A stretch of DNA of 44,890 nt from Acidimicrobiia bacterium. GTDB taxonomy: Bacteria; Actinomycetota; Acidimicrobiia; Acidimicrobiales; JACDCH01. The notes beneath the pieces are model-generated. The model saw only the letters and a list, made by a program, of their open reading frames with translations, was not told the origin of the DNA and ran no database searches. The DNA lies in assembly GCA_013694495.1 (NCBI GenBank), contig JACDCH010000546.1, positions 1 to 44,890 on the forward strand, written 5' to 3'. Below, one piece after another: positions 11,322 through 36,055 of this stretch. The translations under genes and the position numbers were made by a program. Within the stretch, counting starts at the first letter, position 1. Every line of letters starts with the position of its first letter.

Positions 11322-11340
11322 CGCAGCAAGGTATCGGCCC

Positions 11341-11374: not shown

Positions 11375-11431
11375 CCTCACGTAGGGTGACCACGGCGTCG
11401 AGCGAGTGCCGGCGGTGAACGGAAGGACACG

Positions 11432-14400: not shown

Positions 14401-15028
14401 GGCGAACGAGCTCGCAGCACAGGTCGAGAGCGGCAAGCAGCCGAAGATGAACCCCGAGCGCGCCCGCCAACGAGCGGACGACCTCTCCGGCCGCCTCAAG
14501 CGGCGCATGGACGACCTCGACCGCCAAGAAGAGCTGCACGCCCAGCCTCCGACGGTGACCGGCGCCGCGCTCGTCCTCCCGGCTGGCCTACTCGGACCCG
14601 GCGACGGTCCAGCCGCACCGCCCGCCCACGCGAGGGAGACCGCCCGTGTCGAGCGTCGAGCAGTTGACGCGGTTCTGTCAACAGAGGAGCGACTTGGCCG
14701 CGATCCCCGCGAGATGCCCCACAACAACCCGGGCTACGACATCGCCAGCACTACGCACGACCGCCACCTCATCTTCATCGAGGTGAAGGGTCGCGTGGCC
14801 GGCGCCGAGACGGTCACGATCACCCGTAACGAGATTCTCACCAGCCTCAACACCGACCGCTGGGTGCTCGCACTCGTCGAGGTCGCCGACGCCGACGGGC
14901 AGCCGCGCGACCATGTCCGCTACCTCCACCACCCGTTCCGAGGACAGCTCGATGACCTCGGCTTCAAGGAGACCAGCCGCACCTTCCCGTGGCGTGGACT
15001 CTGGGACGCCGCAGGGGAGCCGGCATGA
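11432..15028 (+). CDS. SNF2/DEAH-type helicase with C-terminal DUF3883 (PD-(D/E)xK-like) domain
   Basis: Helicase motifs: LLADDPGAGKTIMAG, IVVDEAHRM, LLMTATPH, VATDAAGEGLNLQ, NPNRIEQRFGRVHRIGQ. The C-terminal NNPGYDIAS...HLIFIEVKGR...ITRNE (about 14720-14830) is the DUF3883 signature as I remember it. Confidence 0.9.
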   Translation: MMAGDPRPAAGGGTRLEDLTVGALVHGLSTSGPVTVVATKWHGSVALTLTCRDASGHVSERVLYRDDESGLRVESSTRGWSFDADGDLFRLAAEARRIQLAHLFDPMLAISLSQVDPLPHQIQAVYGELLPRQPLRYLLADDPGAGKTIMAGLYIKELILRGDLARCLIVAPGGLVGQWQEELYDKFDLTFEILTRELIDSSLTANPFAEKNLLLTRLDHLSRNEDLQAKLAETDWDLIVVDEAHRMAAHWFGGEVKETRRYQLGKMLGGITRNLLLMTATPHAGKEEDFQLFLALLDGDRFEGRFRDGVHTVDVSDLMRRMIKEKLLRMDGRPLFPERIASTVPYPLSPLEQALYDEVTRYVTDEMNRADRLAAEGEGRRGNRVGFALTVLQRRLASSPEAIYQSLRRRRVRLEKDLVDARNRARIASLPSAEARIERLLADLERPARGTDDDDDFEDRIDDLADDEREEVEEELVDSASAARTAQELALEIQTLTRLEELANQVRKTGTDRKWTELLSILDEKPEMRHADGSRRKLIVFTEHRDTLTYLVDRLRDRLGKPEAVVTIHGGTAREQRRAIQERFTQDKDCLILVATDAAGEGLNLQRAHLLVNYDLPWNPNRIEQRFGRVHRIGQTEVCHMWNLVAEDTREGQVYLTLLAKLEEQRKALSGQVFDVLGEAFRDAPLRDLLLRAIRYGDQPEVRDAINQVIDEKVGDGLAELIDAHALASDVLGETQVERIRTQMEEAEARRLQPHYIRSFFLEAFDLLGGRIVEREKGRFEIKHVPQELRDRDRQIGLGAPVLRAYERVCFDKEQVRVVGKPIAELLAPGHPLLDAILDVTLERHRRVLAQGAVLVDDRDAGLDARVLVLLEHAVADGRTDGRGADRRVISRQMQFIDLHEDGTHTASDAAPYLDLRPATTGERAVAEQLLTSGGWLAGDLEAAAFDVAVGEAIPTHLARTRLRTTARTQKVRSAVYERLTREINHWDHRANELAAQVESGKQPKMNPERARQRADDLSGRLKRRMDDLDRQEELHAQPPTVTGAALVLPAGLLGPGDGPAAPPAHARETARVERRAVDAVLSTEERLGRDPREMPHNNPGYDIASTTHDRHLIFIEVKGRVAGAETVTITRNEILTSLNTDRWVLALVEVADADGQPRDHVRYLHHPFRGQLDDLGFKETSRTFPWRGLWDAAGEPA

Positions 15029-15270
15029 CCACCTGGCCGAAGTCGTGGCTCGCCGGTTCACCGGGTGCCGCATGCCCGACGTGCGGCGAACGATCAGGCC
15101 GTCCCATCCTGATGGGCATGCCGAGCGGCGAGGTGTTCGAGGCCCTCGACGCCGGTGCGATCGACATCGAGCTAGGCGGCTGCTGCATCAGCGACGACGA
15201 CCCGACCCACCGCTGCGCCGCCTGCGGTGTGTCGTTCGGTGGGCGGCCGGCAGCTCAGGAGCGAACGTGA
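15025..15270 (+). CDS. 81-aa zinc-ribbon protein
   Basis: ATGA overlap with the helicase stop and GTGA overlap with the methyltransferase start. Contains CPTCG ... CAACG (two CxxC pairs). It is the in-frame tail of ORF 14989..15270. Confidence 0.55.
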   Translation: MTTWPKSWLAGSPGAACPTCGERSGRPILMGMPSGEVFEALDAGAIDIELGGCCISDDDPTHRCAACGVSFGGRPAAQERT

Positions 15271-17966
15271 AGCGCAAGCTCATCGAGGTGGCCCTACCGC
15301 TCGACATCATCAACGCCCAGTCGGCGCGCGAGAAGTCGATCCGCCACGGCCATCCCTCGACGCTGCACCTGTGGTGGGCCCGTCGGCCGCTCGCGGCTTG
15401 CCGAGCCGTGCTGTTTGCCCAGCTGGTCGACGACCCGTCGTCCGACCCCGACCACTTCCCCACCGAGGAGGCGCAGGACGCCGAGCGGCAGCGGCTGTTC
15501 CGCATCCTGGAGCGGCTCGTCCCGTGGGAGGCCCTCACCGACGAGGCCGTGCTCGCCGAGGCCAACGCGGAGATCCGGCGATCATGCGGCGACGAGCTCC
15601 CCACCGTTCTCGACCCGTTCGCAGGGGGAGGCTCGATCCCTCTCGAGGCGCAGCGGCTCGGCCTGTCCGCCGTGGCGAACGACCTGAACCCAGTCGCGGT
15701 GCTCATCAACAAGGCCCTCATCGAGATCCCGCCGGTTTTTGGCGGCCGGCCGCCCATCCATCCCGACGCCGAACGGCGCACCCGATGGGCCGGCGCAGAG
15801 GGCCTCGCAGAGGATGTTCGGCGCTACGGGCAATGGATGAGCGACGAGGCCGAGACGCGCATCGGCGCAAACTACCCGTCTGCGACCACCCCCGGCGGCG
15901 CCTCTACCGTCATCGCCTGGATCTGGGCCCGCACCGCCACCTGTTCGAACCCGGCCTGCCGGGGCACGATGCCATTGCTCAACTCCTATGCCCTGTCCAG
16001 GAAGAAGGGACGGGAGGCGTGGCTCGACCCGGTCGTCGATAGGGAGACGAAGACGGTGACCTTCCGAATCGGCACCGGCGCCGGTTGCCCACCAGGTGGG
16101 ACGGTGTCGCGGACGGGAGCGACCTGTCTGATCTGCGGAACGAACGTGCCGTTGGCCCACGTCCGCGCCGAGGGCAAGGCCGGTCGCATGGGAGCGCAGC
16201 TCGTGTGCACGGTGGCCGACGGGCCCCGTCAGCGCGTGTACCTGCCCGCCGACCCAGTGCACGCCGATGCCGCCAGGGTGACGGTGACGGACGCCGCACC
16301 AGACACGGACCTGCCCGAGCAGGCGCTCGGGTTCCGCGTCCAGGGCTACGGGATCACCAAACACCGCCAGCTCTTCACCGATCGCCAGCTCGTCGCGCTC
16401 ACGACGTTCGTGGACGTGCTCGGCGGCCTGCGGGCCCGAGCCCTTGCCGACGGCGCTGACGAACGGTACGCCGACGCGCTCGTCACCTACCTCTCCCTCG
16501 GCATCGGCCGGCTCGCGAACCGGTGCTCGTCGCAGTGCTTCTGGGACCCAGGTGGGGAGGGCGTCATGCAGGTCTTCGCCCGCAACGCGCTGCCGATGGT
16601 GTGGGTCTTCGCCGAGGCCAACCCGTTCTCGGAGGCGTCGGGCAACTTCACCGGCCAGCTCGAGTACCTGGCCAACGCCCTGGAACGGGTACCGGCTCGC
16701 GGCCACGGGACCGCGGCGCAGGCCGACGCAGCCCACCCGCCGGCCCGCGAGCGGATGGTCATTGCCACTGACCCGCCCTACTACGACAACGTCCCCTACG
16801 CCGACCTCTCGGACTTCTTTTACGTGTGGCTCCGACAGTGCCTCTCCACCGTCCACCCCGAGCTGTTCGGCACGGTCCTGGTGCCAAAGGCCGAAGAGCT
16901 CATCGCCGAGCCGGCTCGCCAGGGCTCCTGGGACGAGGCGGCATCGTTCTTCGAGACGGGCCTACGGACGGTGTTCGCCCGGATCCTCGACACGCAGGTC
17001 GAGGGCATCCCGTTCACGGTCTTCTACGCGTTCAAGCAGTCTGAGGCGGTCGAAGACGTAGAAGGCAACATCGAGCGGGCGTCGACGGGCTGGGAGACGA
17101 TGTTGCAGGGTCTGCTCGACGCCGGTGCAATGATCACCGGGACCTGGCCGATGCGTACCGAGCAGCCCGGCGGGTTGCGCGAGGTCGGCCGCAGTGCGCT
17201 CGCCTCGTCCATCGTGCTGGTCTGCCGGCCGCGCGAGGTGCACGCCGGCATGACCGACCGGCGGGGCTTCCTCACGGCCTTGCGGGCCGAGCTCCCTCAG
17301 GCGCTGCGCGACCTGCAGAAAGGGAACACCGCGCCGGTCGATCTGGCCCAGGCCTCGATCGGCCCCGGCATGGCCGTGTACTCCCGCTACGCCAAGGTCG
17401 TCGAGCCTGACGGCAGCCCCATGCGCGTGAGGGCCGCGCTGGGACTGATCAACCAGACCCTCGATGAGGTCCTCTCCGAGCTCGACGCCGACTTCGACCC
17501 CCGCACGCGCTGGGCCGTGAAGTGGTTTGAGCAGTTCGGCTTCGACGAGGGTCCCTCCGGCCAGGCCGACGTCCTCTTCACGGCCACGGCCACTTCCCTC
17601 GACGGCGTGAAACGAGCCGGCATCGCCGGCTCGTCACCGGGGAAGGTGTGGCTCCTGGGGCGACCCGACCTACCGGCGGACTGGGATCCGACCACCGACA
17701 CCATCACACCGGTATGGGAGGTGACTATGCACCTGCTCAAGCGCCTCGAGGAACGTGGCGAGGCCGCCGCCGGCGGACTGCTCTCCCAGGTCGGCGGCGT
17801 CGGCGACACTGCCCGGGAGCTCGCCTACCGACTGTTCGCGATCTGCTCGAACCGGAAATGGGCAAGCGAGGCGCTCGCCCTCAACGGTCTCGTCACCTCC
17901 TGGCCGGAGATCGCCCGCCTCGCGGCCTCCGGTTCGAGGAACGCCGAGCAAGGAACACTTCTTTGA
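15267..17966 (+). CDS. DUF1156-type DNA methyltransferase (DPPY, N6A/N4C class) with internal zinc ribbon
   Basis: Start re-called at GTG 15267 (VKRKLIEVALPLD) within ORF 14913..17966. DUF1156 signature: HGHPSTLHLWWARRPLAACRAV. SAM motif: VLDPFAGGGSIPLEA (about 15608-15650). Catalytic motif: ATDPPYYDNVPY (DPPY at 16770-16781). Also CSNPAC...CLICG. Confidence 0.9.
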   Translation: MKRKLIEVALPLDIINAQSAREKSIRHGHPSTLHLWWARRPLAACRAVLFAQLVDDPSSDPDHFPTEEAQDAERQRLFRILERLVPWEALTDEAVLAEANAEIRRSCGDELPTVLDPFAGGGSIPLEAQRLGLSAVANDLNPVAVLINKALIEIPPVFGGRPPIHPDAERRTRWAGAEGLAEDVRRYGQWMSDEAETRIGANYPSATTPGGASTVIAWIWARTATCSNPACRGTMPLLNSYALSRKKGREAWLDPVVDRETKTVTFRIGTGAGCPPGGTVSRTGATCLICGTNVPLAHVRAEGKAGRMGAQLVCTVADGPRQRVYLPADPVHADAARVTVTDAAPDTDLPEQALGFRVQGYGITKHRQLFTDRQLVALTTFVDVLGGLRARALADGADERYADALVTYLSLGIGRLANRCSSQCFWDPGGEGVMQVFARNALPMVWVFAEANPFSEASGNFTGQLEYLANALERVPARGHGTAAQADAAHPPARERMVIATDPPYYDNVPYADLSDFFYVWLRQCLSTVHPELFGTVLVPKAEELIAEPARQGSWDEAASFFETGLRTVFARILDTQVEGIPFTVFYAFKQSEAVEDVEGNIERASTGWETMLQGLLDAGAMITGTWPMRTEQPGGLREVGRSALASSIVLVCRPREVHAGMTDRRGFLTALRAELPQALRDLQKGNTAPVDLAQASIGPGMAVYSRYAKVVEPDGSPMRVRAALGLINQTLDEVLSELDADFDPRTRWAVKWFEQFGFDEGPSGQADVLFTATATSLDGVKRAGIAGSSPGKVWLLGRPDLPADWDPTTDTITPVWEVTMHLLKRLEERGEAAAGGLLSQVGGVGDTARELAYRLFAICSNRKWASEALALNGLVTSWPEIARLAASGSRNAEQGTLL

Positions 17967-17988: not shown

Positions 17989-18303
17989 ATGAGTATCTCG
18001 CTGCAGCGCGCCGAGGAACTGCTCCTGCGAGCGGTGGGGATTCTGGCCACCGACCCGGGCGAGGTCCGCGCCCGGCTTCACCACGCTCGCGAGGACCTGT
18101 TCGAACTCGACGAGATCGCCGCCCAGACTGAGCCGGACGGCGCCCCGTACCTCGCGGAGCTGAACGCTCGCATCGCCGCAGTGCGCTCAACCCTCGCTGG
18201 TGGGGGCGTCATGGACCTGAGCGAGGACCAGGGCGTCGAGTGCGCGAAGGAAGTTCTCGACATCTACCTCAGCGTCCGAGCATTTCGGAAGGACGTTCCC
18301 TAA
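17989..18303 (+). CDS. 104-aa helical hypothetical protein
   Basis: ATG 17989 is preceded by GGAGGGGG. Its stop overlaps the next start (TAATG at 18301-18305). Codon bias fits. No family recognised. Confidence 0.5.
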   Translation: MSISLQRAEELLLRAVGILATDPGEVRARLHHAREDLFELDEIAAQTEPDGAPYLAELNARIAAVRSTLAGGGVMDLSEDQGVECAKEVLDIYLSVRAFRKDVP

Positions 18304-21300
18304 TGACCGGGCCCAGCAACCGGGATCGCGTCGGGAAGGCGTTCGAGCACCTTGGCGAGGGCTTGCGGCCGTACGTCGACCGCCGGATGACCAAGAAGTC
18401 GCCGCTGAAGGAGCGTTGGTGGCCGGAGTGGGCGAACCGCTCCCGCGGTGACGCCTCGATGGACGATCCGGCGGAGCTCCTCAAGGTGATGGCCGACTGC
18501 TGGGACCTGGCGTTCCGTGATGAGCTCACCCGTACCGACCGCAATGTCGTGTTCACGCTGCGGGACACCCGCAACAAGTGGGCGCACAACGGCAAGTTCG
18601 ATCTCGACGACGCCTACCGGGCCCTCGACGGCATCGAGGTGTTGCTCCGGGCGATCGACGCCAGCGAGGCCGAGGTCGTCGGCGAGTCGAAGGACGAGCT
18701 GATGCGCCTGCGTTACGCGTCAGATGCGAAGACGGCGACTAAGCAGGAGGTGCTCATCGCCGCGCCACCCGCCGGGCTGACGCCGTGGCGGGAAGTGATG
18801 GTCCCCCACGAGGACGTGGCCGCTGGTCGCTTCAACCAGGCCGAGTTCGCGGCCGATCTGTGGCAGGTCCAGTCCGGGCAGGGACGCGCTGAGTACGTCG
18901 ACCCCATCGAGTTCTTCCGTCGCACCTTCCTGACCGAGGGGCTGCGCACGCTTCTCTCGGAGGCCGCGCTCCGACTCACCTCGTCCGGTGGCGTGCCGGT
19001 GGTCGACCTGCAGACGAACTTCGGTGGCGGCAAGACCCACAGCCAGATCGCTCTCTGGCACCTGTTCTCGGGAACACCACTCGAATCGTTCCCCGACGAG
19101 GTGCGGTCGCTCCTGGCGTCCGAAGGGGTGACGTCGCTGCCTTTTGCGCGCCGGGCGGTGCTTGTGGGCACGAAGGTCCCCCCCGGTCAAGTGACCGTTA
19201 AGCCCGATGGCACCGAGACCCGGACGCTCTGGGGTGAGCTGGCCTGGCAGCTCGGCGGACCGGAGGGGTTCGCCCTAGTTGCGGAGTCCGACCGGACGGC
19301 AACCAACCCCGGCGAGGCGCTCAACCGGCTCCTCGAGCAGTGCTCCCCCTGCCTCATCCTCATCGACGAGTGGGTGGCTTACGCCCGGCAGCTCTCCGAC
19401 ACGAGGGAGGAGGTCGTCGGCGGCAGCTTCGACACGCAGTTCACCTTCGCCCAGGCCCTTACTGAGGCCGCCCGAGCGGTGCCCGGGGCCCTGCTCGTCG
19501 TGTCTCTACCGGCATCGGAGGGCACCGGTGACGCTGGGATCGGCTCCGACATCGAGGTCGGAGGCGCCGGCGGTCGGGAGGCGCTACGGAAGCTGCGGCT
19601 GGTCATCGGACGCATGGAATCGTCGTGGCGACCCGCCACCGCTGAGGAGAGCTTCGAGATCGTTCGCCGCCGGCTGTTCCGGCCGATCGAGCCGGGCCGC
19701 GAGGCCGCCCGCGACGCCACCGCCCAGGCGTTCGGCCGGATGTACCAGAAGGAGGCGTCGGAGTTCCCCAACGAGTGCCGGGAGCCGGCGTACGTCGACC
19801 GGATGAAGGCGGCGTACCCGATCCACCCTGAGCTGTTCGCCCGGCTTTACGAGGACTGGTCGACCCTCGATCGCTTCCAACGCACCCGGGGCGTGCTGCG
19901 GCTGATGGCTTCGGTGATCCACGCCCTGTGGGAGGCCGGCGACCAGTCACCGCTCATCCTCCCGTCTTCGATCCCCCTGGCTGACGCAGCCGTGTCGGCC
20001 GAGCTCACCCGCAACCTCGACGACCAGTGGAAGCCGATCATCGACCACGACATCGACGGCCCGGGCTCCGTCCCCGTCGCCCTCGACCGCGAGCTAGCCG
20101 GCACGCTCGGCAAGTTCCAGGCCGCTCGGCGCGTGGCACGCTGCATCTTCCTCGGGTCGGCGCCTACCGTTCGGTCGGCCAACCGCGGCATCGACCCCGC
20201 CCGCATCCGCCTCGGCTGCGTCCTGCCGTCGGAGGGCATCGCCACCTACGGCGATGCCCTGTCCCGGCTCTCAGGCCGGGCCACCTACCTGTACGCCGAC
20301 GGCGGCCGCTACTGGTTCGGGGTCCAACCGTCAGTGGCTCGCGTCGCTCGCGACCGCGCCGAGCGCTACCTCAACCAGCAGCGTGACGAGCTGCACATGG
20401 AGATCGTCCGCCGGCTGCGGGCGGCGCAGAGCGAGCCGGGCGAGTTCCGGGCCGTGCACCCGCCAGCGTCGAGTTCAGCCGACATTCCCGACGAGGCCGA
20501 GACCCGACTTGTCATCCTCGGTCCCGATCATCCCCACATCGCCCGCTCCGACAACAGCGCGGCCCTCGCCGCCGCCGCCGAGATCCTGGAGCGCCGGGGC
20601 GCAGCGCCGAGGGATCACCGCAACTGTGTGGTGTTCCTGGCACCGGACCACAAGCGCCTCGATGAGCTCGAGCAGGCTGTCGCCGACTACCTGGCCTGGT
20701 CGTCGGTCGACGCCGAGCGCGGCGAGGACGGCCTGAACCTCGATCCGAACCAGGCTCGGCAGGCGTCGACCAAGCGCGATGACAGCGACCGGGCGGTGAC
20801 GATCCGGCTGGCCGAGACCTACCAATGGGTGCTGGTCCCCACCCAGCTCGACCCGCTGGGGCCGGTCAGCTGGGACAAGGTCAAGGTCGACGGACAGGGC
20901 GGACTCGCCGTTCGCGCCAGCAGGAAGCTCGTCAACGAGGCGCACCTATACACCCAGTTCGCCCCAGCGCTCCTCCGCCAGCGCCTCGACGGCGAGCTCG
21001 CCTCGCTCTGGACCGACGGGCACGTCAGCGTCAACAAACTGTGGGACGCGTTCTCCCGATACCTCTATCTCCCTCGACTCCGCGACCCGGCCGTCCTCCT
21101 GTCATCGGTCGGAGCCGGTGCGGCCAGCGTCATGTGGCAAGCCGAGGGCTTCGCGACTGCGGATGCTTACGACGAGGCCACAAGCCGTTACCTCGGCCTG
21201 ACCGTCGGGGGGCTGGCGAACCCCATTACCTCCACCCTGGTGGTCGTCCCGGACCGAGCTGCCGCGCAGATGGACGCCGACCGCACACGAGCCGCGGCCA

Positions 21301-21635
21301 CCGGCGGATCGGTTGAAGCCGGCGAGGACGATCCGACGACCGGAGAGACAAGCAGCGCAAGTGGTGAGGTTGCTCCGCCTGGTCCGGCGGTGCCGACGAA
21401 GCCCACCCGGTTCCACGCCGCAGTCAACCTCGATCCCGAGCGTCTGAACCGTGACTTCGGAAAAGTCTCGGCTGAAGTAATCGCCCACCTGACGAGCCTT
21501 CTCGGCACTGATGTGACGATCACGGTCGAGATCGGCGCGACGAACACCGAGGGCTTCGCGGACACGACTGTGCGCAACGTGACGGAGAATGCGAAGACCC
21601 TCAAATTCACCGACTACGGCTTCGAGGACCGATGA
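18303..21635 (+). CDS. Swt1-like HEPN domain fused to a DUF499 P-loop ATPase
   Basis: Start re-called at MTGPSNRDRVGKAFEHL within ORF 18240..21635. HEPN motif: TLRDTRNKWAHNGKF (R-x4-H at 18570-18587). P-loop: NFGGGKTHSQ. The long C-terminal region is typical of DUF499 proteins. Confidence 0.85.
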   Translation: MTGPSNRDRVGKAFEHLGEGLRPYVDRRMTKKSPLKERWWPEWANRSRGDASMDDPAELLKVMADCWDLAFRDELTRTDRNVVFTLRDTRNKWAHNGKFDLDDAYRALDGIEVLLRAIDASEAEVVGESKDELMRLRYASDAKTATKQEVLIAAPPAGLTPWREVMVPHEDVAAGRFNQAEFAADLWQVQSGQGRAEYVDPIEFFRRTFLTEGLRTLLSEAALRLTSSGGVPVVDLQTNFGGGKTHSQIALWHLFSGTPLESFPDEVRSLLASEGVTSLPFARRAVLVGTKVPPGQVTVKPDGTETRTLWGELAWQLGGPEGFALVAESDRTATNPGEALNRLLEQCSPCLILIDEWVAYARQLSDTREEVVGGSFDTQFTFAQALTEAARAVPGALLVVSLPASEGTGDAGIGSDIEVGGAGGREALRKLRLVIGRMESSWRPATAEESFEIVRRRLFRPIEPGREAARDATAQAFGRMYQKEASEFPNECREPAYVDRMKAAYPIHPELFARLYEDWSTLDRFQRTRGVLRLMASVIHALWEAGDQSPLILPSSIPLADAAVSAELTRNLDDQWKPIIDHDIDGPGSVPVALDRELAGTLGKFQAARRVARCIFLGSAPTVRSANRGIDPARIRLGCVLPSEGIATYGDALSRLSGRATYLYADGGRYWFGVQPSVARVARDRAERYLNQQRDELHMEIVRRLRAAQSEPGEFRAVHPPASSSADIPDEAETRLVILGPDHPHIARSDNSAALAAAAEILERRGAAPRDHRNCVVFLAPDHKRLDELEQAVADYLAWSSVDAERGEDGLNLDPNQARQASTKRDDSDRAVTIRLAETYQWVLVPTQLDPLGPVSWDKVKVDGQGGLAVRASRKLVNEAHLYTQFAPALLRQRLDGELASLWTDGHVSVNKLWDAFSRYLYLPRLRDPAVLLSSVGAGAASVMWQAEGFATADAYDEATSRYLGLTVGGLANPITSTLVVVPDRAAAQMDADRTRAAATGGSVEAGEDDPTTGETSSASGEVAPPGPAVPTKPTRFHAAVNLDPERLNRDFGKVSAEVIAHLTSLLGTDVTITVEIGATNTEGFADTTVRNVTENAKTLKFTDYGFEDR

Positions 21636-21669
21636 GGCAGCTCACCGCACGCTGGCTGGAGGGCTGGCA

Positions 21670-22191
21670 ATGGCACTGACCATTGGGTCCAACCCGCACC
21701 AGGGTCATCACGCCGAGGGAATGCTCGCCGCCCTGGCTGCATCGGCTGGTCTGGACATTCAGGTTCCGCGGTTGGGTTACGCGATCGACATGTCGATCTT
21801 CAACCCGGGCCCCAATGGCACATCCGGAAGTCGACAGATCACGGTCCAAGTCAAGAGCTGGTCGACCGGGAGCCTTCACGACGACGGGACGTTCCACTAT
21901 CCGCTCAAGTGCTCCGCCTTCAACTACCTCGCAGGCGGTGGCCATGACGTCCGCCACTACCTCGTGCTGTGCATCGTCCCGGCCGATGGCAACGACTACG
22001 CCGACGCCGGCGCCGATCGCCTGAAGCTTCGCCAAGCCCTGTACTGGCATTCGCTGCACAACGACACGCCCGACGACAACCTTGATCCCGAGAGCACGAA
22101 GACCGTCTACGTGCCTCGGACGAACATGCTCACGCCGGTCACCCTGCGCTACCTCGTCGATCACAACGAAGCGCTGGCGGTCGTGCCATGA
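21670..22191 (+). CDS. DUF4365-like PD-(D/E)xK nuclease-fold protein (173 aa)
   Basis: ATG 21670 lies downstream of GGAGGG and within ORF 21589..22191. The layout HAEGMLAALAASAGL ... GYAIDMSIF ... ITVQVKSW ... YLVLCIVP ... ALYWHSL fits the E / D / QxK pattern that I associate with DUF4365. Confidence 0.55.
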   Translation: MALTIGSNPHQGHHAEGMLAALAASAGLDIQVPRLGYAIDMSIFNPGPNGTSGSRQITVQVKSWSTGSLHDDGTFHYPLKCSAFNYLAGGGHDVRHYLVLCIVPADGNDYADAGADRLKLRQALYWHSLHNDTPDDNLDPESTKTVYVPRTNMLTPVTLRYLVDHNEALAVVP

Positions 22192-23354
22192 GGGTGCGCG
22201 TACTCGATCCCAGCGCGCTCGCAAGCCCCGGTGCACGGCGGATACGTCTGTATCTTCGACTCAACGGCTGGGCGCAGGAGACGACCGACCAGGGCGGCCC
22301 CGACGTCTGGGGCCGTCAGGCAGAAGGCGATGTCTACGAGGTCATCGCACCATCTCAGACGGCACGGGACTTCACGTCCCGGGTTTCGGAGCTGCTGCAC
22401 ACGCTGTCGGTCGTTGAGGACCGATCGGAGTCCGACGTCCTCCGTGACTTGCTCACCGTCACGTTCGACGTGCAGTACCTCCGTACCGGGCACGAGGGAC
22501 CTCCCGGAACAGCGCCGCTCCGCGACGCCGCCGATGCAGTCGCGGCAGCGCACAATCTGCTTGCGTCCGCGACCGCTGCGTTGGAAGAACCTCGCCTGGT
22601 GCAGCCGAGCCGACGGCCGGCCAAGACCACCGACTTCATGCGGAAGGTTCTTGCAGGGCCGACATCGGTCGGCAGTTTCGTGATCTCTACTTGGGTGCCC
22701 ATTCCACCCCGGCTGTCGCCGGAGGAGGACCAAGTCCTCTTCGACGACCCGAATGAGCCGTTCGAGCGCCAGGCAACGAGGCATCTGAGTCGTGCGCTCG
22801 CCGCAGCGCAGCAGGCCAGCGACGAGGCGCTGTCCTCGGACGCGGGGCTCGATGCCTTCCTCGCTGGTGAACAGGACGGCCTCAGCGCCAATCTCTGCGA
22901 GGCACTGGTGGCACTGGCGGGCGAACAGGAGGTGCCGCTGGGGATCACACTGGCTTGGGCCCTCGACCGCCCGATGCAGCACCTGCCATCCGAGTTCAGT
23001 TTCCCGACTGAGTCGATCTCAGTGCTGCGCGAGGCGGCACGCGAACTGCGCCAACGGCTACCCGAAGAGGTAGTTCGGGTGCGAGGAAATGTCGTACGCC
23101 TCCACCGTGACGCCGTTTCCGGCGCGGGTGACGTCACCATCGCCGGCATCGTGTCGGGTGACGATCTGGGCAAGCTTCGCCGAATCTCCGCATCTCTGGC
23201 GGAGGAGGACTACGAGCAAGCAATCGAGGCGCACCAGCAGTTCTCCGACGTAGAGATCGTCGGCGAGCTGTACCAACGGGGCACCCGGACGCACCTTCGG
23301 GATGCCCGAGGCTTCGCGGTCCATCCCGCCGCGGACGAGCATCCAGGCTCGTAG
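22188..23354 (+). CDS. 388-aa hypothetical protein, no recognisable family
   Basis: ATGA overlap with the preceding gene. Good G/C third-position bias. No P-loop, TM segment or catalytic motif found by eye. Confidence 0.65.
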   Translation: MRVRVLDPSALASPGARRIRLYLRLNGWAQETTDQGGPDVWGRQAEGDVYEVIAPSQTARDFTSRVSELLHTLSVVEDRSESDVLRDLLTVTFDVQYLRTGHEGPPGTAPLRDAADAVAAAHNLLASATAALEEPRLVQPSRRPAKTTDFMRKVLAGPTSVGSFVISTWVPIPPRLSPEEDQVLFDDPNEPFERQATRHLSRALAAAQQASDEALSSDAGLDAFLAGEQDGLSANLCEALVALAGEQEVPLGITLAWALDRPMQHLPSEFSFPTESISVLREAARELRQRLPEEVVRVRGNVVRLHRDAVSGAGDVTIAGIVSGDDLGKLRRISASLAEEDYEQAIEAHQQFSDVEIVGELYQRGTRTHLRDARGFAVHPAADEHPGS

Positions 23355-23483
23355 CCGCACAAGTTCGACGATGGTTGCGACCCTCTCCTGGCTCGACGTC
23401 TCGGCTGGGCACCAGCGCCGGGTGCGCGACCTCATCCGGCTCTTCGAGGAACTGGGGACGCGGACCCTTCCGGAACTCGACGA

Positions 23484-26400
23484 TCACCGCGCGCCGATTG
23501 AGCGGCCGAGGGAACGACCCCTCGTTGGCTCGATCACATCTCGCACGACAGCCGCGACCTGGTCGTGGCGATACCGGGCAAGAAGCTCCCTCGGACGGGA
23601 ACCGATCAGCTCGGCGATCGTGGTGGCGTGCTCCGGGACCACCTCGGCGGACTCGTCGAGGTAGAGACGGATGCTCTCGGCGGCTCGGTCCCAGCAGAGT
23701 CGCTCACGCTGAGCAGACGGTCGTGTTCCGAGGAGCTCGATGATGGCCAGAGGTGGGTCGGCGACGGCCTCGACGGCGAGAGTCAGCCGGCGAGAGGCCA
23801 AGGCCTGGTTCACCAGCTTCCTCTCGGCGAACTGTTCGGCGTGGTCGGCAGCGAACGCTTCGTGCTCGTGCTGCACCCCTTCGAGGCGCCCTACGCGCTG
23901 ATCGGCATGTGTGATCGCCTCGTCGATAGATGCGAGCGGCCTCAGGGCGGCGCGGCGCCGGCTGGGGCGCCAGGCGGCATGGGCCTCCGTCATTCGAGCG
24001 CGCCGGCCAGCCAGCATGGAGAGTCCTCGCCGGGCCTCTGTGAGTTGGTCCGCAACGGATGGCGGCTGCTTGCCGAGCACCGCGTCTAGCTCCCTGGCTC
24101 GCTCTCGCAGCTCCCGCAGCGTTTGACGTTGCGCGAGATGGGCGGCTTGGACAGCGAGTGGGTCGATCTCCGACGCGACGATCTGGTTTCCGCGGCGCGC
24201 GAGCGCCTCCGCGATGGGGCCAAGTCCGGTCTCGGGCACCTCCACGGCGTGGTCGCCAGTCTCGTCGTCGATCTCCCGGTCGCCCTCCACGATGTACAGA
24301 CTGGTTCGCTCGGCAGCTCGGGTGATGGCGACGTAGCCCTCTTCGAACCGGGAGACGTCGGTCGGGTGGTACCTGGCGCGATCGAGCGTCGCTCCTTGCA
24401 CGCCGTGCGTGGTTCGGGCGTAGGCGTGCTCGATGTGGCCAGCATCGAGGTACTCGGCGGGGATGGTGATCGGGCCCTCGTTCATGAACTCGACGACGAT
24501 CTCGCGTCGGCCGACCTTGATGGCGGCGACCCACCCGGTGCTCCCGTTCTTCACGAACTCCGACCGACCGCTTGCGTGGAGGGCGCGGTCGTTGCGGCGG
24601 GCGACGACCTCGTCACCAACCATGAACTCGCGGCCGTGGGCAATGAGGGGCTCGCCCATGAGCACCCCTTCGGCCTTGAGCAGCGTCCGGGCTCGGGTGT
24701 TGAGCGCTCGGCGGGCGGCGTTGGTGCCGGTGAGCATCGGCGCCGCAGAACCAGCGAGGCGGTCGGCCCACCAGTCCTGCACGAGGGCGTCGTACGTCTC
24801 GCGGGCAGTGGGCTGCCGGACGATCTTGCCGGCCAGGTCGTAGCGGTCGAGGGCCTCGTCGATGCGGCCCTCCCTGTAGTCGTCGATGGCCGCGCGCTCG
24901 ATCGGATCGATCTGGCGACGGTTGCCGACGAGCCGGACGAGCTCGGATCCCTTGCGAGCGGCCAGGGCCTTGAAGACGCCACCGGTGTCGACCGAGGCGT
25001 GCTGATCGGGGTCTCCGATCAGCTTGATGCAGCCGCCGACAGCATCGACATGGGAGGCGAGGCGAGCGAGGTCACGGGTACCCACCATCGATGCCTCGTC
25101 AAGCAGGAGGACGGTGCCGGATGCAAAGCGGTAGCCCCGCTGCTCAACGTCGATCAGCAAGCTGGCAATCGTTTGCGCCGACCGCCCCGTGTGGTGTCGG
25201 AAGCCGACGGCTGACTCCAGCTCTGCGGCGGCCGTGGCGCTGACCGCGCACCCGGCGACCGAGGTGCCCGACAAGGCGAAGGCATCGACGCAGGCGGAGG
25301 CGGCGTAGGTCTTGCCCGACCCCGGGCGGCCGACAATCGGTTGAATCGCCTCGGACGATGAGCAGACGGCGCGCACCATCGTCACCTGCTCGTCGGTGAG
25401 ATCGGGCCGCTGGGTCAGGACGAGGTCGATCGCCAAGTCCTTGGCGGCGAGGCCGGGGGCTCGGCGTTGCTCGGCCCACTGCAGGAGACGGGTTTCGATC
25501 TCGACGAGCTCTGGGGTGCTGAAGACCGCGGTACCGCCGGTGAGGATGCGGCGGTTGTCGAGCCCGATGACGACCTGGGAGTTGACTCCGGAGGTGGGGC
25601 CGGCGAGGAGCACAACCCGGTCGGAGGCGATGAACCGATCGGCGAGGCGTTCGACCTCCTCGGCGGGGGCTGCGGACCCGAGCTCGGCGGCGAGGCGCTG
25701 GACGACATCTCGGCGGGTAAAGGTCGAGGCTCGCTCGGTCAGCCCGTGCGCTCCGGCGAGGTGTTCGAAGGTGCGCTCGATGGCGCCGGATCGCTGCTGC
25801 ACGACGTGCGCCCGGTCGAAGCACGCCTCGATCGCGCGCTCGTCGAAGCCGAGGGCGGCGGCCCGTTCCCGCCAGGTGTTGGCCAGGGCGTCCGGGTCGA
25901 CGCTTCGGTCCTTCGCGTTCCGGGTGGCGAGGGTGGCGGCCTGGCGGGCCCGCGCGGAGGTGTAACCGGACTCGGCGAGCAGCTCCTCGATCTCGTCGCG
26001 GCGCTGGCTGAACTCGTCGATCACCCGCTGCGGGACGCCGTCGATGTCGGCGAGGCCGTGGACGATCGGTCCCCACTCGATGCCGAGCCGCTCGGTCAGC
26101 AAGTGGCGAAGGTGGGCTTGGTAGAGGTAGCCGCCGGAGAGGGCGTGGTGGAACAGGAGTCGGCCCTCGAGCGTGCGCCAGGCGTCGGCGACGGTGAGCG
26201 TGAGGTTGGCGACGACGACGTGAGTGTGCAGCAGGGGGTCGCCGGCCCGGCTGCTGCGGTGGTCGAAGGCAGCGGCGACGAGTCCGGCGGTCTGGATGCG
26301 CTCGCCCTTGGACCGGGCCATGGTCGCCTGGGCCTCGTAGTACCTGACGACCTCGTCGACGGCTTCGCGGTGGGCCTGGCGGATGGCGGCCCGCCGCTCG

Positions 26401-27425: not shown

Positions 27426-27612
27426 ACTCACCCGAGCGCTCACGTTTGGGCTCACCCTCGCGAGATTTCTCAGAATTTCTAGGGAGTGAGCCCCTCCCCA
27501 CTCACGCGCGCTCACGTTTCCACTCACGTTCTCCGGGATTCCGAGGGGTGAGCCCGACTTGGGCTCACGCTCACTCACGTATTGGCTCACCCGCGCTCAC
27601 GTTTGGTCTCAC
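27426..27612. repeat. dense field of (G/A)CTCAC(G) direct repeats, including three copies of GCGCTCACGTTT
   Basis: About 13 same-strand CTCAC hexamers plus 2 inverted GTGAGC in 187 bp. GCGCTCACGTTTGGGCTCAC at 27436-27455, GCGCTCACGTTTCCACTCAC at 27508-27527 and GCGCTCACGTTTGGTCTCAC at 27593-27612. The field lies in the divergent spacer between 27383 (-) and 27710 (+). Confidence 0.8.
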
Positions 27613-27709
27613 GCACGCCGCGATCCCGCCCCTGGAGCCCGGTGAGGCCTTGGTTGCGCTTATTTCGATTTGCTCGTACCGTACGGGTAGACCGACCGGG
27701 AGCGAAGCG

Positions 27710-28387: not shown

Positions 28388-29656
28388 TCAGGAAGAGGAA
28401 TCCCGATGATCGGGCCCCCTGATGACCCGGTGCCGGACGATGTCGAGGGTGGCCAGCTCCTGCTCAACTGGATAGCCCCGATCGAGAACCGACGCAGCGA
28501 ACCACCCAATCAGCGGATCATCGGCGAGCGCGCGCAGGCCGACCATCGCAGGCCCGTCAGGATCAAACGGCGGCCGGGGTGGGTGAGGCCAGGCACCGAC
28601 GTCGATGACCTCCGCAGCCGGCGCGGCTTGGAGCACTCGGCGGGCGATGCGCACGCCTCCCAGGTCGGCGTCGACGATCGCGACGACTCGCGTGCCTGTC
28701 GACGCCAGCAGCTCGAGGAGGCACGCTGCGTCGTCGCCGAACTGGCCGGCGGTGTACACGACCGGCAACGCCGGATGGCGCGCGCAGACGACCTCGGCCG
28801 GTTGCAGGTTCTCGATCACGACGACCGTGCACTCCGTGGTTGAGATGCCGAGGTGCGGCTGGTCGAGCCGGAGGGCAACCGGGCCTCGGATCGGTGCGAG
28901 GTCGACCGAACCGTCCGTGGTCGTCACGACGATCGGCCCGCCGAGGCCGATGCGGTCGCCTCGTCGGAGGCCGAGCTGCTCGAGCACGGCGGCGGGGACG
29001 TTCGCCGCTGTGAGGACGGCTGCGACGTCATGTGCCTTGGTCCCATCGAAGTGCGCCTGCGCAAACGCGCGTGGACCGGCATGATCGATGCCCGCCAACA
29101 GATCGCCGGCCGCCGCAGTGATCACCGCAATGGCCACGGGCGACCTGGCGCTTCGCAGCGCCGAGGCGACCTCGGGGAAGTTGGCGGCGAGTGCCGTGGC
29201 GAGTGACTCCCGCTCGGCGTCGCGCTGCTGCTCCGACTCGATGGTGCGGGCGCGCGCCGTCGACACAGCGACGGCAGCCTCCTCGGTGGGTTGCCACCAG
29301 CGAGGGCCACCGAGGATGCCGCGGCTGTCGACGCCGCAGGCCAAATGGACCACACGGCCGCGCACAAGGGACAACGCGACCTCGAAGGCCTCGTCGCCGT
29401 AGCGGCCGACGACCGTCGACCACCGCCGTCGTCCGGCGCCGAGCGCAAAGAGCCGGTCGGCCTCGACAACTGGGCCTGCCGGATGGTTCGGGTCGTGCAC
29501 CAGCACGACCTCGTTGGTCTTTCGACGCTGCCGACGATCTCTGACTTCGACGAGCTCCCCGTCGCGTTCGACGACCTCGACCAAGGGGACGACGCGACAC
29601 CCGAGCGGAACGCCACCCACCAGGGCGGATGCGCCGTTGGGATCCCAGTGCCTCAC
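28388..29656 (-). CDS. jetD: JetD/MksG-like Toprim nuclease subunit
   Basis: C-terminal Toprim-like layout: TVVVIENLQPAE ... VVYTAGQFGDDAA ... VVAIVDADLGGVRIARRVL. GTGA overlap with the upstream SMC-like gene. Confidence 0.75.
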   Translation of the reverse strand: MRHWDPNGASALVGGVPLGCRVVPLVEVVERDGELVEVRDRRQRRKTNEVVLVHDPNHPAGPVVEADRLFALGAGRRRWSTVVGRYGDEAFEVALSLVRGRVVHLACGVDSRGILGGPRWWQPTEEAAVAVSTARARTIESEQQRDAERESLATALAANFPEVASALRSARSPVAIAVITAAAGDLLAGIDHAGPRAFAQAHFDGTKAHDVAAVLTAANVPAAVLEQLGLRRGDRIGLGGPIVVTTTDGSVDLAPIRGPVALRLDQPHLGISTTECTVVVIENLQPAEVVCARHPALPVVYTAGQFGDDAACLLELLASTGTRVVAIVDADLGGVRIARRVLQAAPAAEVIDVGAWPHPPRPPFDPDGPAMVGLRALADDPLIGWFAASVLDRGYPVEQELATLDIVRHRVIRGPDHRDSSS

Positions 29657-32600
29657 AGCAGACGACCGGACTCCACCGCCGCGCGCGTCAGCTCAACTCG
29701 GCGGCCGTCAGGGTCGAAGCCCCAAACACGCGTCGGACGGCAGAGCGGCGACGCATCCGAGAGCCGCTCGAACCATAGGAGGAGGCGGGCGGCGCCGAGG
29801 GCGGCGACCTCCTCAAGGACCTTGTCCTGACAGGCAGCGATCACGGTGACGCCGTGGATGTCGGCGACGTGCGCGAAGGCCGACAACACCTGGCGGAGGT
29901 GCTCGCGGCCAAAGTCATTGCCGGCCTCATCGACGATGAGAACTCGACCGGCGGGGTCTTGGGCGGCGAGCAGCGCGGCGAGGACCAGGTGCGTGCGGTG
30001 CTGCTTCTGCATGGCCGAGTTGGCCTGTCGCGTGTATGGCAGCCACTTGGCACCCTGACCGCGGCGCCATTCCGGGGTGACCTCCCAAACCCAGAGGTCG
30101 GTCGGCAGCTCCGGCCGAAGCGAGCGCCAACCGAGCTGCGCGCCGTAACCACCGGCAGCGGCATCGAGTTCGGCGTAGCGCGCGCTGACGTGACCGAGTG
30201 CGGCTTCGATCTGCTGCTCGACCATGTCGCGGTGCCGATCGAGCAGGTCGCCCTGCGTGCCGCACTCCTTGCGGGCGGCACCGATGAGCTCGTCCCACCG
30301 CTCCCGTTCGGCTTCGACGTCCTCGCGAAAGGTGGCGTCGTGGTCGCCCTGTTCGTCGAGCCAGTCGACGAGCGGCTGGGCGACTGTGTCGAACCTGCGG
30401 ACCTCGTTGGTGGAAGGCACGTCGTCGTCGAGCCCACGCCGGGCGCGGATGACCCCTGCGATCGCTGAGGTCGGTGCGCCGAACCCGGAATTCGAATCGA
30501 TGCCGACACGCTCGAGCGCGATGCTGAGCTGTTCGGCGGCCCGCTTCCGGAGCGTGTCCTCCTGGCGGTCGTCGCTCGCGAGCGCGACCCCCGCGGCCTC
30601 GTCGGTGTCGGCCCAAGCACTGCGCCACCCATCGGCGTCGAGGCGCGCGATCGAGGCCCTGGTCGTGTCCATCTCGCGTGCAATGCGCTCCACCTCGTCT
30701 TGAGCGACCCCGAGATCACCCTCGAGACGGTCTCGGGCCTGCGCTGAGGTGTCGTACTGCACTCGAGCGTCGACCAGCTCCGTGTTTGCCATGCGTCGGT
30801 CCGCGTCCGCCTCGGCCAGCGCCCGCCTTCCCGTTGCAAGCTCCCGGGCACGCTCGGACTCCTGCCTGCTCAGGATCTCGAGCTCTGCGGCGGAGCGAAG
30901 CCGCTCGGCGGCGTCGATCGCCAGCTCGTGGGCTTGGAACGCTCGTTCGTGCTTCCCAAGCGTCTCGGCCTGCGCGTGTTCGACCTGTTCCAGCTCGGCG
31001 CGCGCTCGGTCGATTGCGGCGTCTCGGCCGCACAACTCGTGCTCGAACCCGCCGGCCACGACAACGCCAGCGGCGGCGTCGACGTAGGGCACCTCCGACC
31101 GCCCGAGGAGGGTGCGCAGGAACCGGGCGGTTCCGGCAGGTGCCTCAGTCACACCGTCGGGTCGTTGCTCCGTCGAGTCGGGCTCGACGATGACGAGGAC
31201 CGTGCCGGGCGGAGCGGAGGCGATGGCTCGATCGCGATGCTCGACAGGGATGACGAACGCGCCTCGCCACGGGGCGAGCAGCGGCTCCCACAGGGGACGT
31301 GCTGCCTCGTCGAGCACGATGCCGTCGATGAGCGACGTCGCGTTGACCTGCGCCGAGTCGAGCGCGGCGTGCGCTTGGGGGTCGGCCTCGCCGTGTTTCA
31401 TGATCGCCGCGAGGGTTGACTGCGCGCGATGGACATAGGTCTCGGCAGCACCAAGCGCGCGGATCGCTAGATCGAGCGCGTCCGCTGCGTCGGTCGCTCG
31501 AGACTCCGCATCTTCGAGGGTGACCCCGGCTGGGGCGGCGATCGCCTTCGTCGTGAGCGATGTGATCCGCTCCGCCAGCTGGTCGAGTTGGACGCCGCGT
31601 CGGACGACGTCCTCGTTTGCAGCCGTGTACCGCTGCTCGGCCTCCTCGTGAGCGCGCTGCGCCGATTCGACCAACCCTTCGAGCGTCGGGGCGTCGGGGA
31701 GGTCCGCCAGGCGAGCTGCGATGTCGCGGACAGCGGTACTGGCGGCGTTCTGGCTGGACGACAGGTCGAGGATGTGCGCGTCGAGCCGCTCCTGCTCCGA
31801 CACGGCGTCGAGGAGCTTGCGGGCGATGCGGAGCCGCCAGAGCCGCTTGCCTTCGGCGATGGCGTCCCGCGCGCTGTCGCGAGCGTCGATCTCCCCGAGG
31901 GTGGCCGCCCACTCCCGCTCGCGGCGTTCATGCTCGTCGATGCGGGTGGCGAGCCGCTGCTGCGCGTCGGCGAGCTTCGACCGCAGCTCTCGCTCGCCGT
32001 CGATGAGGTGCTCCAGCCCGAGGAGCACGATCAGCTCACTCCCGATGCGTGACGGGCTCAGCCGGGCCTGGAGCTGCATCAGTGAAGTGTCGGTGTCTCG
32101 GTTGCCCCGGCTGGTGACGTAGGCAAGGCATCGTCCGGTCCCGCCGTAGAGCTGCTCCACGAAGGAGGTCGGGCCGATCTGGTGTTCGCGGCCAAGTTCG
32201 TTCCACATCGTGGCCGCCTGGTCGCGCTCGGCGACGAGGTGGACACCGGGCGCCCACCGGGCGGTGAGCCGGGGCGTGTCGTCGGAGGAGATCCGCACCC
32301 AGACGGTCAGCTCGTCGTAGTTCCCGTCGGCCGTGACGTGGGCGAAGACGCCGGCGACATAGCCGACCCGAGCCGGGTCGTAGAGGCCGGCGGCGTCGCC
32401 AGAGAGGTCGGGGTCGAAGAGCAGGCCGAGCGCGTCGGCGCCGCCGGTGGTCGCCACCCGCCATTCGGGGTCGCCGAGCAGAAGCGACACTGAGGCCAGG
32501 AAGGTCGTCTTGCCACTCCCGTTGGAGTCCCGGTCGGGACCGGTGCCTGACACGGCAACCAGCGCCGAGGGCACGAGCGGCACCGGGTGGTGGGTGAGCC

Positions 32601-32688
32601 GCCCGAGTTCGATGGTCTGCACGGCAATCAGCTGGCGGCGACCAACGATGCCAGCGGCGGGCGCGCCGAACAGGGTGGGCTCATTCAT
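29653..32688 (-). CDS. jetC: JetC/MksB-like SMC-family ABC ATPase
   Basis: N-terminal P-loop SNGSGKTTFLASVSLLLGDPEW. About 600 aa of Ala/Glu/Arg-rich coiled coil. C-terminal Walker B RVLIVDEAGNDFG. Confidence 0.85.
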   Translation of the reverse strand: MNEPTLFGAPAAGIVGRRQLIAVQTIELGRLTHHPVPLVPSALVAVSGTGPDRDSNGSGKTTFLASVSLLLGDPEWRVATTGGADALGLLFDPDLSGDAAGLYDPARVGYVAGVFAHVTADGNYDELTVWVRISSDDTPRLTARWAPGVHLVAERDQAATMWNELGREHQIGPTSFVEQLYGGTGRCLAYVTSRGNRDTDTSLMQLQARLSPSRIGSELIVLLGLEHLIDGERELRSKLADAQQRLATRIDEHERREREWAATLGEIDARDSARDAIAEGKRLWRLRIARKLLDAVSEQERLDAHILDLSSSQNAASTAVRDIAARLADLPDAPTLEGLVESAQRAHEEAEQRYTAANEDVVRRGVQLDQLAERITSLTTKAIAAPAGVTLEDAESRATDAADALDLAIRALGAAETYVHRAQSTLAAIMKHGEADPQAHAALDSAQVNATSLIDGIVLDEAARPLWEPLLAPWRGAFVIPVEHRDRAIASAPPGTVLVIVEPDSTEQRPDGVTEAPAGTARFLRTLLGRSEVPYVDAAAGVVVAGGFEHELCGRDAAIDRARAELEQVEHAQAETLGKHERAFQAHELAIDAAERLRSAAELEILSRQESERARELATGRRALAEADADRRMANTELVDARVQYDTSAQARDRLEGDLGVAQDEVERIAREMDTTRASIARLDADGWRSAWADTDEAAGVALASDDRQEDTLRKRAAEQLSIALERVGIDSNSGFGAPTSAIAGVIRARRGLDDDVPSTNEVRRFDTVAQPLVDWLDEQGDHDATFREDVEAERERWDELIGAARKECGTQGDLLDRHRDMVEQQIEAALGHVSARYAELDAAAGGYGAQLGWRSLRPELPTDLWVWEVTPEWRRGQGAKWLPYTRQANSAMQKQHRTHLVLAALLAAQDPAGRVLIVDEAGNDFGREHLRQVLSAFAHVADIHGVTVIAACQDKVLEEVAALGAARLLLWFERLSDASPLCRPTRVWGFDPDGRRVELTRAAVESGRLL

Positions 32689-33308
32689 GCGTGGGCTGCT
32701 CCTCGGCGACGGTGGACGGCCCGAGCCAGGTTCGAGCCGGGTGCGGCGGCCACGACCATGTTCTCCCAGATCGTGCGGCTGCGTTCCTCCGTGAGCCGGC
32801 GGAACTGCGGACCGGGCAGAAGCTTGGAGCGGAGCCCGGTTCGCAGGACGCCGGCGTCGCGCAGTCGGCGCAGCGAGGCGCGGACGGCCCGTTCGTTGAG
32901 GCGACGGTCTCGGTTGGCGGTGAGCGCGCCGACATCGGGTGCAGGGAGGTTGTCGCTGGACCAGTCGGTGGTGTCCGTGGTGCCGCGTGCTGCCGGGATG
33001 GCGACGGCGTGAAGTAAGACCAGGCTCAGCACGGCGGCGTCAATCGGTGCCAGGACACCCGCGCCCTCGTCGACCAGCCGGTCGGCGATGGTGTCGTCGT
33101 ACCCGGAGATCCAACTGTCATCGCCGACTCGGAGGAGCGCGCGCCCGGCTCCCTGCAACGACTGGCCGACGAGGTCGCGAAGGGCGGGATCGGCGAGCGC
33201 AGCGAACTGCGCTTGCGGAACCGGCTCCGCCGACTCCTCGACGGCAACGACGGCGTTCAGGACCGCACCGCGGTCTCGCGACGACAGGGTGGCGAGAGTG
33301 GCGGTCAT
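32685..33308 (-). CDS. 207-aa winged-helix-like protein (JetB/KITE-like candidate, second of two)
   Basis: Start re-called at MTATLATL (ATG 33308) in ORF 32685..33593; the upstream 95 codons are Arg/Pro junk read out of frame from the preceding gene. ATGA overlaps at both ends. VRASLRRLRDAGVLRTG looks like a wHTH recognition helix plus wing. Confidence 0.55.
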   Translation of the reverse strand: MTATLATLSSRDRGAVLNAVVAVEESAEPVPQAQFAALADPALRDLVGQSLQGAGRALLRVGDDSWISGYDDTIADRLVDEGAGVLAPIDAAVLSLVLLHAVAIPAARGTTDTTDWSSDNLPAPDVGALTANRDRRLNERAVRASLRRLRDAGVLRTGLRSKLLPGPQFRRLTEERSRTIWENMVVAAAPGSNLARAVHRRRGAAHA

Positions 33309-36052: not shown

Positions 36053-36055
36053 CGG

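Follow-up and report, generated by a model that had tools for sequence, protein, structure and literature searches.

The window analysed here is a 44,890-nt stretch of contig JACDCH010000546.1 from an Acidimicrobiia bacterium, and the subject of this work is a pair of adjoining genes on its forward strand, A and B, which lie directly behind the Hma operon. Gene A (21670–22191) encodes a stand-alone DUF4365/DREN-type protein of 173 amino acids (aa) with a predicted PD-(D/E)xK site, and gene B (22188–23354) encodes a protein of 388 aa; the two are assigned to the PADLOC families PDC-M02A and PDC-M02B, respectively. The open reading frame (ORF) of HmaC ends at 21635, leaving a gap of 34 nt before the ATG of gene A at 21670. 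The stop codon of A and the start codon of B share an ATGA overlap (22188–22191), a layout indicative of translational coupling. A Shine-Dalgarno-like GGAGGG can be read from the sequence at 21658–21663 (+), 6 nt 5′ of the start codon of gene A. An alternative, longer ORF for A opens at an ATG at 21589; the homologue alignments start at 21670, and this start is favoured because both the GGAGGG site and the N-termini of the homologues fit it. All coordinates of a preliminary description of the locus, made from the sequence alone, agree with the ORF table and the sequence, including the gap and the overlap.

Both genes are real, since A reaches the gathering score of DUF4365, B has many homologues, and the G+C content at third codon positions (GC3) of the two genes supports it. 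The GC3 values are 0.80 for A and 0.75 for B, lower than those of the hma genes (0.85) and of the other neighbours in the window. A scan of 21300–23700 found no promoter or terminator, the sigma-70 consensus being of little use in a genome of 69% G+C.

The predicted nuclease

Protein A matches Pfam DUF4365 (PF14280) over residues 31–162 with 40 bits (gathering cutoff 24.3; E = 5.1e-10), and residues 6–167 align with positions 3–164 of the 169 positions of the PDC-M02A profile (E = 1.2e-40). Judged from its sequence, it is a DUF4365 protein of the PD-(D/E)xK type with an intact D...QxK motif. This motif comprises D40 (codon gac, 21787–21789), the predicted metal-binding aspartate of the PD-(D/E)xK site, and Q60-V-K62 (caa gtc aag, 21847–21855), corresponding to the (D/E/Q)xK catalytic motif. 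D40, Q60, K62 and W126 are 100% conserved in an alignment of 63 homologues, and D40, Q60, K62, L98, P104 and W126 are invariant in a second alignment of 33 sequences. The preliminary description had recognised the family and the fold, which the Pfam match and the conservation of the motif support. The residues that it named in order, E16 (in HAEG), D40 and Q60-V-K62, are where it placed them; D40, Q60 and K62 proved invariant, but E16 is not conserved across the family.

The same description had presented DUF4365 as a domain with no assigned function, a view that is outdated: DUF4365 is DREN, the collateral nuclease domain of the SPARDA systems (PMC10810196, PMC12205087). In TmuRE, a DUF4365 protein of SPARDA, Q62 and K64 are proposed active-site residues and the Q62A/K64A protein is called an inactive mutant (PMC10810196); Q60 and K62 of protein A are the equivalents of these residues. 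Taken by itself, the DREN domain of NbaSPARDA is a monomer without detectable activity, and it is activated by tetramerisation on the Argonaute filament (PMC12205087). The only match of the A family profile among Protein Data Bank (PDB) sequences is the DREN-APAZ entry 9jsb, and it is weak (E = 0.93); the alignment spans the D...QxK region, with D40 falling on the GID motif and Q60-x-K62 on QIK. A search with protein A alone against PDB sequences gave no match, and a search of NCBIfam gave none for either A or B. According to Pfam, the 173 residues of A contain DUF4365 only, with no APAZ domain. The A and B families show no relationship to each other by hhalign.

The partner protein

Protein B aligns over residues 1–382 with positions 1–377 of the 380 positions of the PDC-M02B profile (E = 7.7e-112), and has no significant match in Pfam or NCBIfam. 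The B family profile has no match among PDB sequences. The preliminary description had seen no P-loop, transmembrane segment, metal-binding or catalytic motif in B and had assigned it to no recognisable family. None of these motifs was found, and the second statement holds for Pfam and NCBIfam, but B is a full-length member of a PADLOC family. Its homologues number 131 in a collection of 5.8 billion proteins. When sequences are clustered at 50% identity, 6,460 clusters match the family at E ≤ 1e-3 and 2,377 at E ≤ 1e-30. The family length is about 380 aa, within 375–400 aa in almost all of the 150 best matches listed. The invariant residues include W28, P55, D61, D94, S163, R194, G231, N235, C237, E238, A284 and R288 in residues 1–290, and L305, R307, G314, Y342, H349 and G359 in the C-terminus; the most conserved motif of the alignment, G231-L-S-A-N-L-C-E238, is encoded at 22878–22901.

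The AlphaFold model of full-length B (pLDDT 87.9, pTM 0.75) contains an α/β N-terminal module, a mostly helical middle part and a β-rich C-terminus, in agreement with the three-part architecture that had been proposed from the sequence. Residues 1–290 (22188–23057), built by AlphaFold as two α/β modules, were also modelled alone (pLDDT 87.8, pTM 0.84), and a Foldseek search of the PDB with this part returned no relative, the best match having an E-value of 0.36 and a probability of 0.16. The C-terminal part, residues 291–380 (23058–23327), has the topology β1-β2-β3-helix-β4-β5, with strands at residues 293–306, 314–322, 331–337, 354–364 and 367–379 and the helix at 339–350. In the model it appears to form an oligonucleotide/oligosaccharide-binding (OB) fold, an assignment accompanied by marginal E-values. 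When full-length B was compared with the PDB by Foldseek, this domain alone was matched, and the top matches were nearly all OB folds of bacterial single-stranded DNA-binding proteins (SSBs). The best of them, 3eiv_D, is marginal (E = 2.5e-3, TM-score 0.59 relative to the target). The BFVD matches of the domain are phage SSBs. Bacterial SSBs and the model of residues 291–380 share the OB topology of five strands, in which a helix separates β3 from β4. They differ in that B has no sequence relationship to SSBs (no Pfam match to PF00436, and an hhalign probability of 0.15) and in that its one OB domain follows a module of 290 residues. Binding of single-stranded DNA by B is putative. No Ago or APAZ structure is found among the top 50 listed Foldseek matches of either the full-length or the 1–290 search.

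Some variants of the family depart from this architecture. P0209 (752 aa) is a variant of B with C-terminal TPR repeats, and in P0132 (478 aa) and P0220 (458 aa) the B region is preceded by a partial match to DUF4365; these two may be A–B fusions or gene-calling artefacts.

Inheritance of the pair

Genes A and B constitute a self-contained, co-inherited two-gene unit. Relatives of B were identified by scanning one genome per species, for 185,579 species, with the motif G[VLI]SANLCE[AS]. This single strict motif led to 453 confirmed relatives, and the locus counts given here rest on the best 80 of them. These 80 loci span Actinomycetota, several proteobacterial classes, Planctomycetota, Chlamydiota, Latescibacterota, Chloroflexota, Acidobacteriota and others. 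By iterated profile search, A was found directly upstream of B in 76 of the 80 loci; at two of the other four, B lies at the edge of a contig. A 4-nt NTGA overlap between the two genes is kept in 70 of these 76 loci, in many phyla, and the pairwise identities of A are correlated with those of B (r = 0.94, 63 pairs). When the three ORFs closest to the pair on either side were clustered, no third gene proved to be conserved beyond single lineages. In six loci with an intact B (L012, L014, L016, L018, L043 and L020), A carries a frameshift or an internal deletion, is truncated or is missing, and B is truncated in L025 alone; assembly errors are possible for these decayed genes. The recurrent decay of A with retention of B possibly fits a costly effector.

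By its profile matches, the pair is the PADLOC candidate system PDC-M02, the two family members being direct neighbours on one strand, with A ahead of B. The system is already catalogued, contrary to the earlier view of it as undescribed. PDC systems are 145 phage defence candidates derived from genes that lie inside BREX, DISARM and type I restriction-modification (R-M) systems (bioRxiv 10.1101/2024.01.29.577857), and they entered PADLOC untested, as 'guilt-by-embedding' predictions (Payne, Hughes, Fineran, Jackson, bioRxiv 10.1101/2024.01.29.577857; PADLOC-DB v2.0.0). Supplementary table 8 of that work lists the cassette CAS_00021 (FAM_01850>>FAM_00842, count 894) with the remark 'Assign as candidate PDC-M02', a count that ranks PDC-M02 second in abundance among the multi-gene candidates of the catalogue (bioRxiv 10.1101/2024.01.29.577857). 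No main text in the searched literature mentions 'PDC-M02', and the eight PADLOC candidates that have been tested, seven PDC systems and HEC-01, do not include it (PMC12881386). The pair in the window has the gene order A>>B of PDC-M02, whose relatives are embedded in DISARM, type I R-M and apparent BREX operons, and shows no structural difference from it; it differs in standing after the last hma gene, not inside a BREX, DISARM or R-M operon.

Genomic surroundings

Between 20 and 24 of the loci, nearly all from Streptomyces, have a helicase and a DUF1998/MZB protein as neighbours, which are DrmA/DrmB-like. In the Streptomyces locus L017, PADLOC identifies DrmD and DrmMI on one side of the pair and DrmA and DrmB on the other, with the pair on the opposite strand; this copy is embedded in DISARM. 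A 327-aa ORF of the same locus (12066–13046, +) matches the C-terminal third of DrmMI alone (E = 2e-127). It is inverted and adjoins both the full-length drmMI (13058–17200, −) and the embedded pair, and it may represent a remnant or a specificity segment that can be inverted. In L020, where A is missing, the flanks hold a PglX-like methylase on the one hand and a weak match to the PglZ domain (E = 1.2e-4, under the Pfam cutoff) on the other, which suggests BREX surroundings. The pair lies between hsdM/hsdS and hsdR in L088 and adjoins a type II R-M system in L091, while L083 and L084 adjoin GmrSD, Mrr, an MNT-type pair and CBASS genes, and L081 and L082 are near nSTAND3 and UvrD-type and ResIII helicases. 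TrwC relaxase genes are found in L089 and L090, the latter also having Prim-Pol and ArdC. Among 123 nearest neighbours from 41 further loci, PADLOC matched BrxC, PglX, a short prokaryotic Argonaute with SIR2-APAZ and type IIG enzymes, as well as ZacA, mad2, PDC-S65 and others.

As regards phages, tblastn gave no match in 50,697 phage records. PHROGs gave weak matches for both A and B, and BFVD contains one full-length structural match to B, from Leptospira phage LE1 (E = 2e-23). Taken together, the loci show the pair repeatedly within or next to defence genes and on conjugative elements, and without Hma in nearly all genomes, but some copies lie among housekeeping genes.

Proposed role of the pair

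We consider it probable that A and B form a stand-alone defence module of the PDC-M02 family, composed of a nuclease effector and a sensor or regulator, and parked behind Hma. Protein A is taken as the effector because, of the two proteins, it alone has a catalytic motif, and B as the likely sensor or regulator because it is large, does not look enzymatic and carries the predicted OB domain. The two proteins would be made in fixed proportion and would form a physical complex, as argued by the near-universal 4-nt overlap and by the co-evolution of A and B. In the proposed mechanism, B would keep the nuclease monomeric and inactive until an infection cue is detected; the OB domain of B would bind this cue, for which a phage protein or a single-stranded nucleic acid is the most plausible candidate. 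Protein B would then license A to cut DNA by driving its oligomerisation, in analogy with the DREN domain of SPARDA, and the outcome would be indiscriminate DNA degradation leading to abortive infection or plasmid loss.

Protein A can be compared with SPARDA (for example TmuRE-Ago and NbaSPARDA): it belongs to the same Pfam family (DUF4365, or DREN) and keeps the D...QxK motif. In both systems, a small nuclease module and a larger non-catalytic partner are encoded in one operon. The pair differs from SPARDA in having neither Argonaute nor APAZ: A is a stand-alone protein of 173 aa, not a DREN-APAZ fusion, and its partner is not a short Argonaute (MID-PIWI). Sensing by the pair therefore cannot be based on a guide RNA. 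The activation of A by oligomerisation is borrowed from SPARDA and would apply here by analogy.

Several observations weigh against a defence module of this kind. In the proposed mechanism, the physical contact between A and B, the trigger and the oligomerisation are each inferred. The OB assignment combines a topology with a marginal Foldseek E-value (2.5e-3) and lacks sequence support; few conserved aromatic residues are found on the domain, so that nucleic-acid binding is putative. In protein A, the residue at position 16 is S or A in many non-actinobacterial members, and the small clade to which the window belongs (together with L001, L003 and L004) has LG-Y-A-I-D, without two of the aspartates of the family motif D-x-D-x-[VI]-D. 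The pairs of the Catenuloplanes loci L086 and L087 lie among housekeeping genes, and the pair is rare both on plasmids (4 of 72,556 records) and in viral contigs (four loci in IMG/VR). Finally, the searched literature contains no experiment, phenotype, mechanism or structure for PDC-M02, and its role in defence is for this reason a prediction.

A more specific proposal, which we regard as possible and somewhat unlikely, is that B is a new infection sensor that assembles stand-alone DREN nucleases into an active oligomer, making the pair an Argonaute-independent counterpart of SPARDA. If true, the trigger of B would be a phage-derived single-stranded nucleic acid or protein, and this kind of sensor would be spread over thousands of protein clusters in many bacterial phyla.

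Alternative explanations

The position of the pair invites the reading that A and B are an accessory nuclease arm of Hma, in which HmaABC recognises or marks DNA that A–B would cleave. The three hma genes, identified with PADLOC and Pfam, encode HmaA (11432–15028, with a NOV_C domain), HmaB (14913–17966, a DUF1156 methylase) and HmaC (18240–21635, 1131 aa, with HEPN_Swt1 and DUF499). The pair is their physical neighbour on the same strand, with no terminator-like site seen in the 34 nt that separate it from hmaC. L001, the closest relative, shows this arrangement as well, with a gap of 29 nt; it is a metagenome-assembled genome of Acidimicrobiia. Genes A and B are probably co-transcribed with Hma in both. 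However, in a tblastn search with HmaA, HmaB and HmaC of the window, HmaB and HmaC were found within 10 kb of B at only one of the 80 loci, L001 itself. Elsewhere the pair stands with DISARM, BREX, type I or type II R-M systems, or alone. The GC3 of the pair also differs from that of the hma genes, Hma has nuclease-like domains of its own in NOV_C (HmaA) and HEPN (HmaC), and systems unrelated to Hma are often embedded in it (Payne et al., bioRxiv 10.1101/2024.01.29.577857). A role as an Hma accessory was rejected on the absence of HmaB and HmaC within 10 kb of B at 79 of the 80 loci, and a nuclease arm of Hma is scarcely credible. The preliminary description had set the pair apart from the helicase/methylase/ATPase trio upstream, rightly in view of these counts, and had left open whether it was an effector arm of that system or an independent two-gene defence module riding behind it. 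The distribution of the pair speaks against the former, and the retention of A with B in 76 of 80 loci supports the latter: the pair is a separate module that landed behind Hma in this lineage. It is very improbable, too, that the pair serves housekeeping DNA repair or recombination, with an OB-fold binder of single-stranded DNA and a structure-specific nuclease. An OB fold together with a nuclease would suit such a role, as would the Catenuloplanes pair, which is close to an Fpg glycosylase gene. The distribution is patchy for a housekeeping function, with 453 matches to the strict motif in the genomes of 185,579 species, and the loci are scattered over phyla, repeatedly inside defence operons or on mobile elements, and show frequent pseudogenisation of A.

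A two-subunit restriction enzyme, either of type IV or sequence-specific, in which B would recognise DNA and A would cleave the invader while the host is spared, draws on the fact that PD-(D/E)xK is the classical restriction-endonuclease fold. The pair has no methyltransferase, like type IV enzymes, GmrSD and Mrr lie beside it in L083 and L084, and R-M genes surround other loci. This explanation is nonetheless unlikely: Foldseek gave no match of B to the folds of known modified-base readers or DNA-recognition domains, and all DUF4365 nucleases characterised so far act as collateral nucleases without specificity (PMC10810196, PMC12205087). The pair could instead be an addiction module resembling toxin-antitoxin (TA) systems, with A as a toxic nuclease and B as its antidote, stabilising an integrative or conjugative element. 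The tight translational coupling, the TrwC relaxases nearby in the window, L089 and L090, and the repeated decay of A with B kept, which suggests that A is costly, are all in line with it. An order with the putative toxin first and a uniform multi-domain partner of about 380 aa are atypical of type II TA systems, however, and the 388-aa partner has no helix-turn-helix, ribbon-helix-helix or AbrB match in Pfam. Moreover, the loci are mostly chromosomal, many of them inside R-M, DISARM or BREX operons, with only four plasmid records. An addiction module is on these grounds decidedly unlikely, and it would be compatible with a defence role by abortive infection.

If the pair is a defence system, as we favour, DREN, so far described only as an effector tethered to Argonaute, would be controllable by a completely different sensor, and A–B could supply a new activatable nuclease for diagnostics. 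PDC-M02 is an abundant candidate for which no test is reported in the searched literature, and two-thirds of B have no solved structural relative. For the annotation of the window, position 21635 closes the Hma operon, and the pair behind it is to be treated as a module of its own.

Hma and the surrounding element

Compared with L001, the window has identities of 87% for HmaA, 83% for HmaC, 76% for A and 80% for B. HmaB (14913–17966) is only 43% identical to its counterpart there (3467–6130), which suggests that this methylase/specificity gene was replaced or is fast-diverging. On the other side of the pair, a TrwC relaxase gene is convergent with B. A tRNA-Arg(CCT) gene at 7711–7786 is followed by a tyrosine integrase gene at 7866–9053, and a second integrase gene lies at 1433–2575. 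Because the tRNA gene precedes the tyrosine integrase gene, the region of Hma, PDC-M02 and the relaxase is suggested to be an integrated element; no att repeat of the tRNA-Arg that would bound it was found at seed 14. Between the two integrase genes, the stretch 4636–7437 contains a ThiF/E1-like gene, with PADLOC E1-E2 matches, and a gene for an SDH-type ClpP-like protease.

Four copies of a 26-nt repeat (GCGCTCACGTTTGG.CTCAC...), spaced by 72, 63 and 22 nt, are present at 27436–27618, some 500 nt away from where the relaxase gene starts, and could be an iteron or oriT-like protein-binding array. A four-gene operon on the reverse strand (28388–35286), with products of 493, 302, 1011 and 422 aa, has in its last gene a weak DUF2399/JetD match (Pfam 9.7e-6, PADLOC JetD 4e-7), and its other three genes have no Pfam or PADLOC match. 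The sizes and order of the genes resemble JetABCD, and the operon may be a divergent Wadjet-like system. The same element carries a defence/TA module at 35171–37015 (−), in which an AbiEii toxin gene (PADLOC 4e-111) has the AbiEi antitoxin gene directly upstream. Divergent from hmaA, a gene at 9060–11474 (−) encodes an 804-aa SNF2 helicase with an HHH motif, which matches DrmD/DpdE-type PADLOC profiles (E = 5e-163); the other genes of those systems are not in the window. Toward the end of the window, a 15-nt tandem repeat (44104–44193, five overlapping copies of a 30-nt unit) sits in the region of two overlapping ORFs on opposite strands, the forward one of which, 42309–44549, encodes a subtilase.

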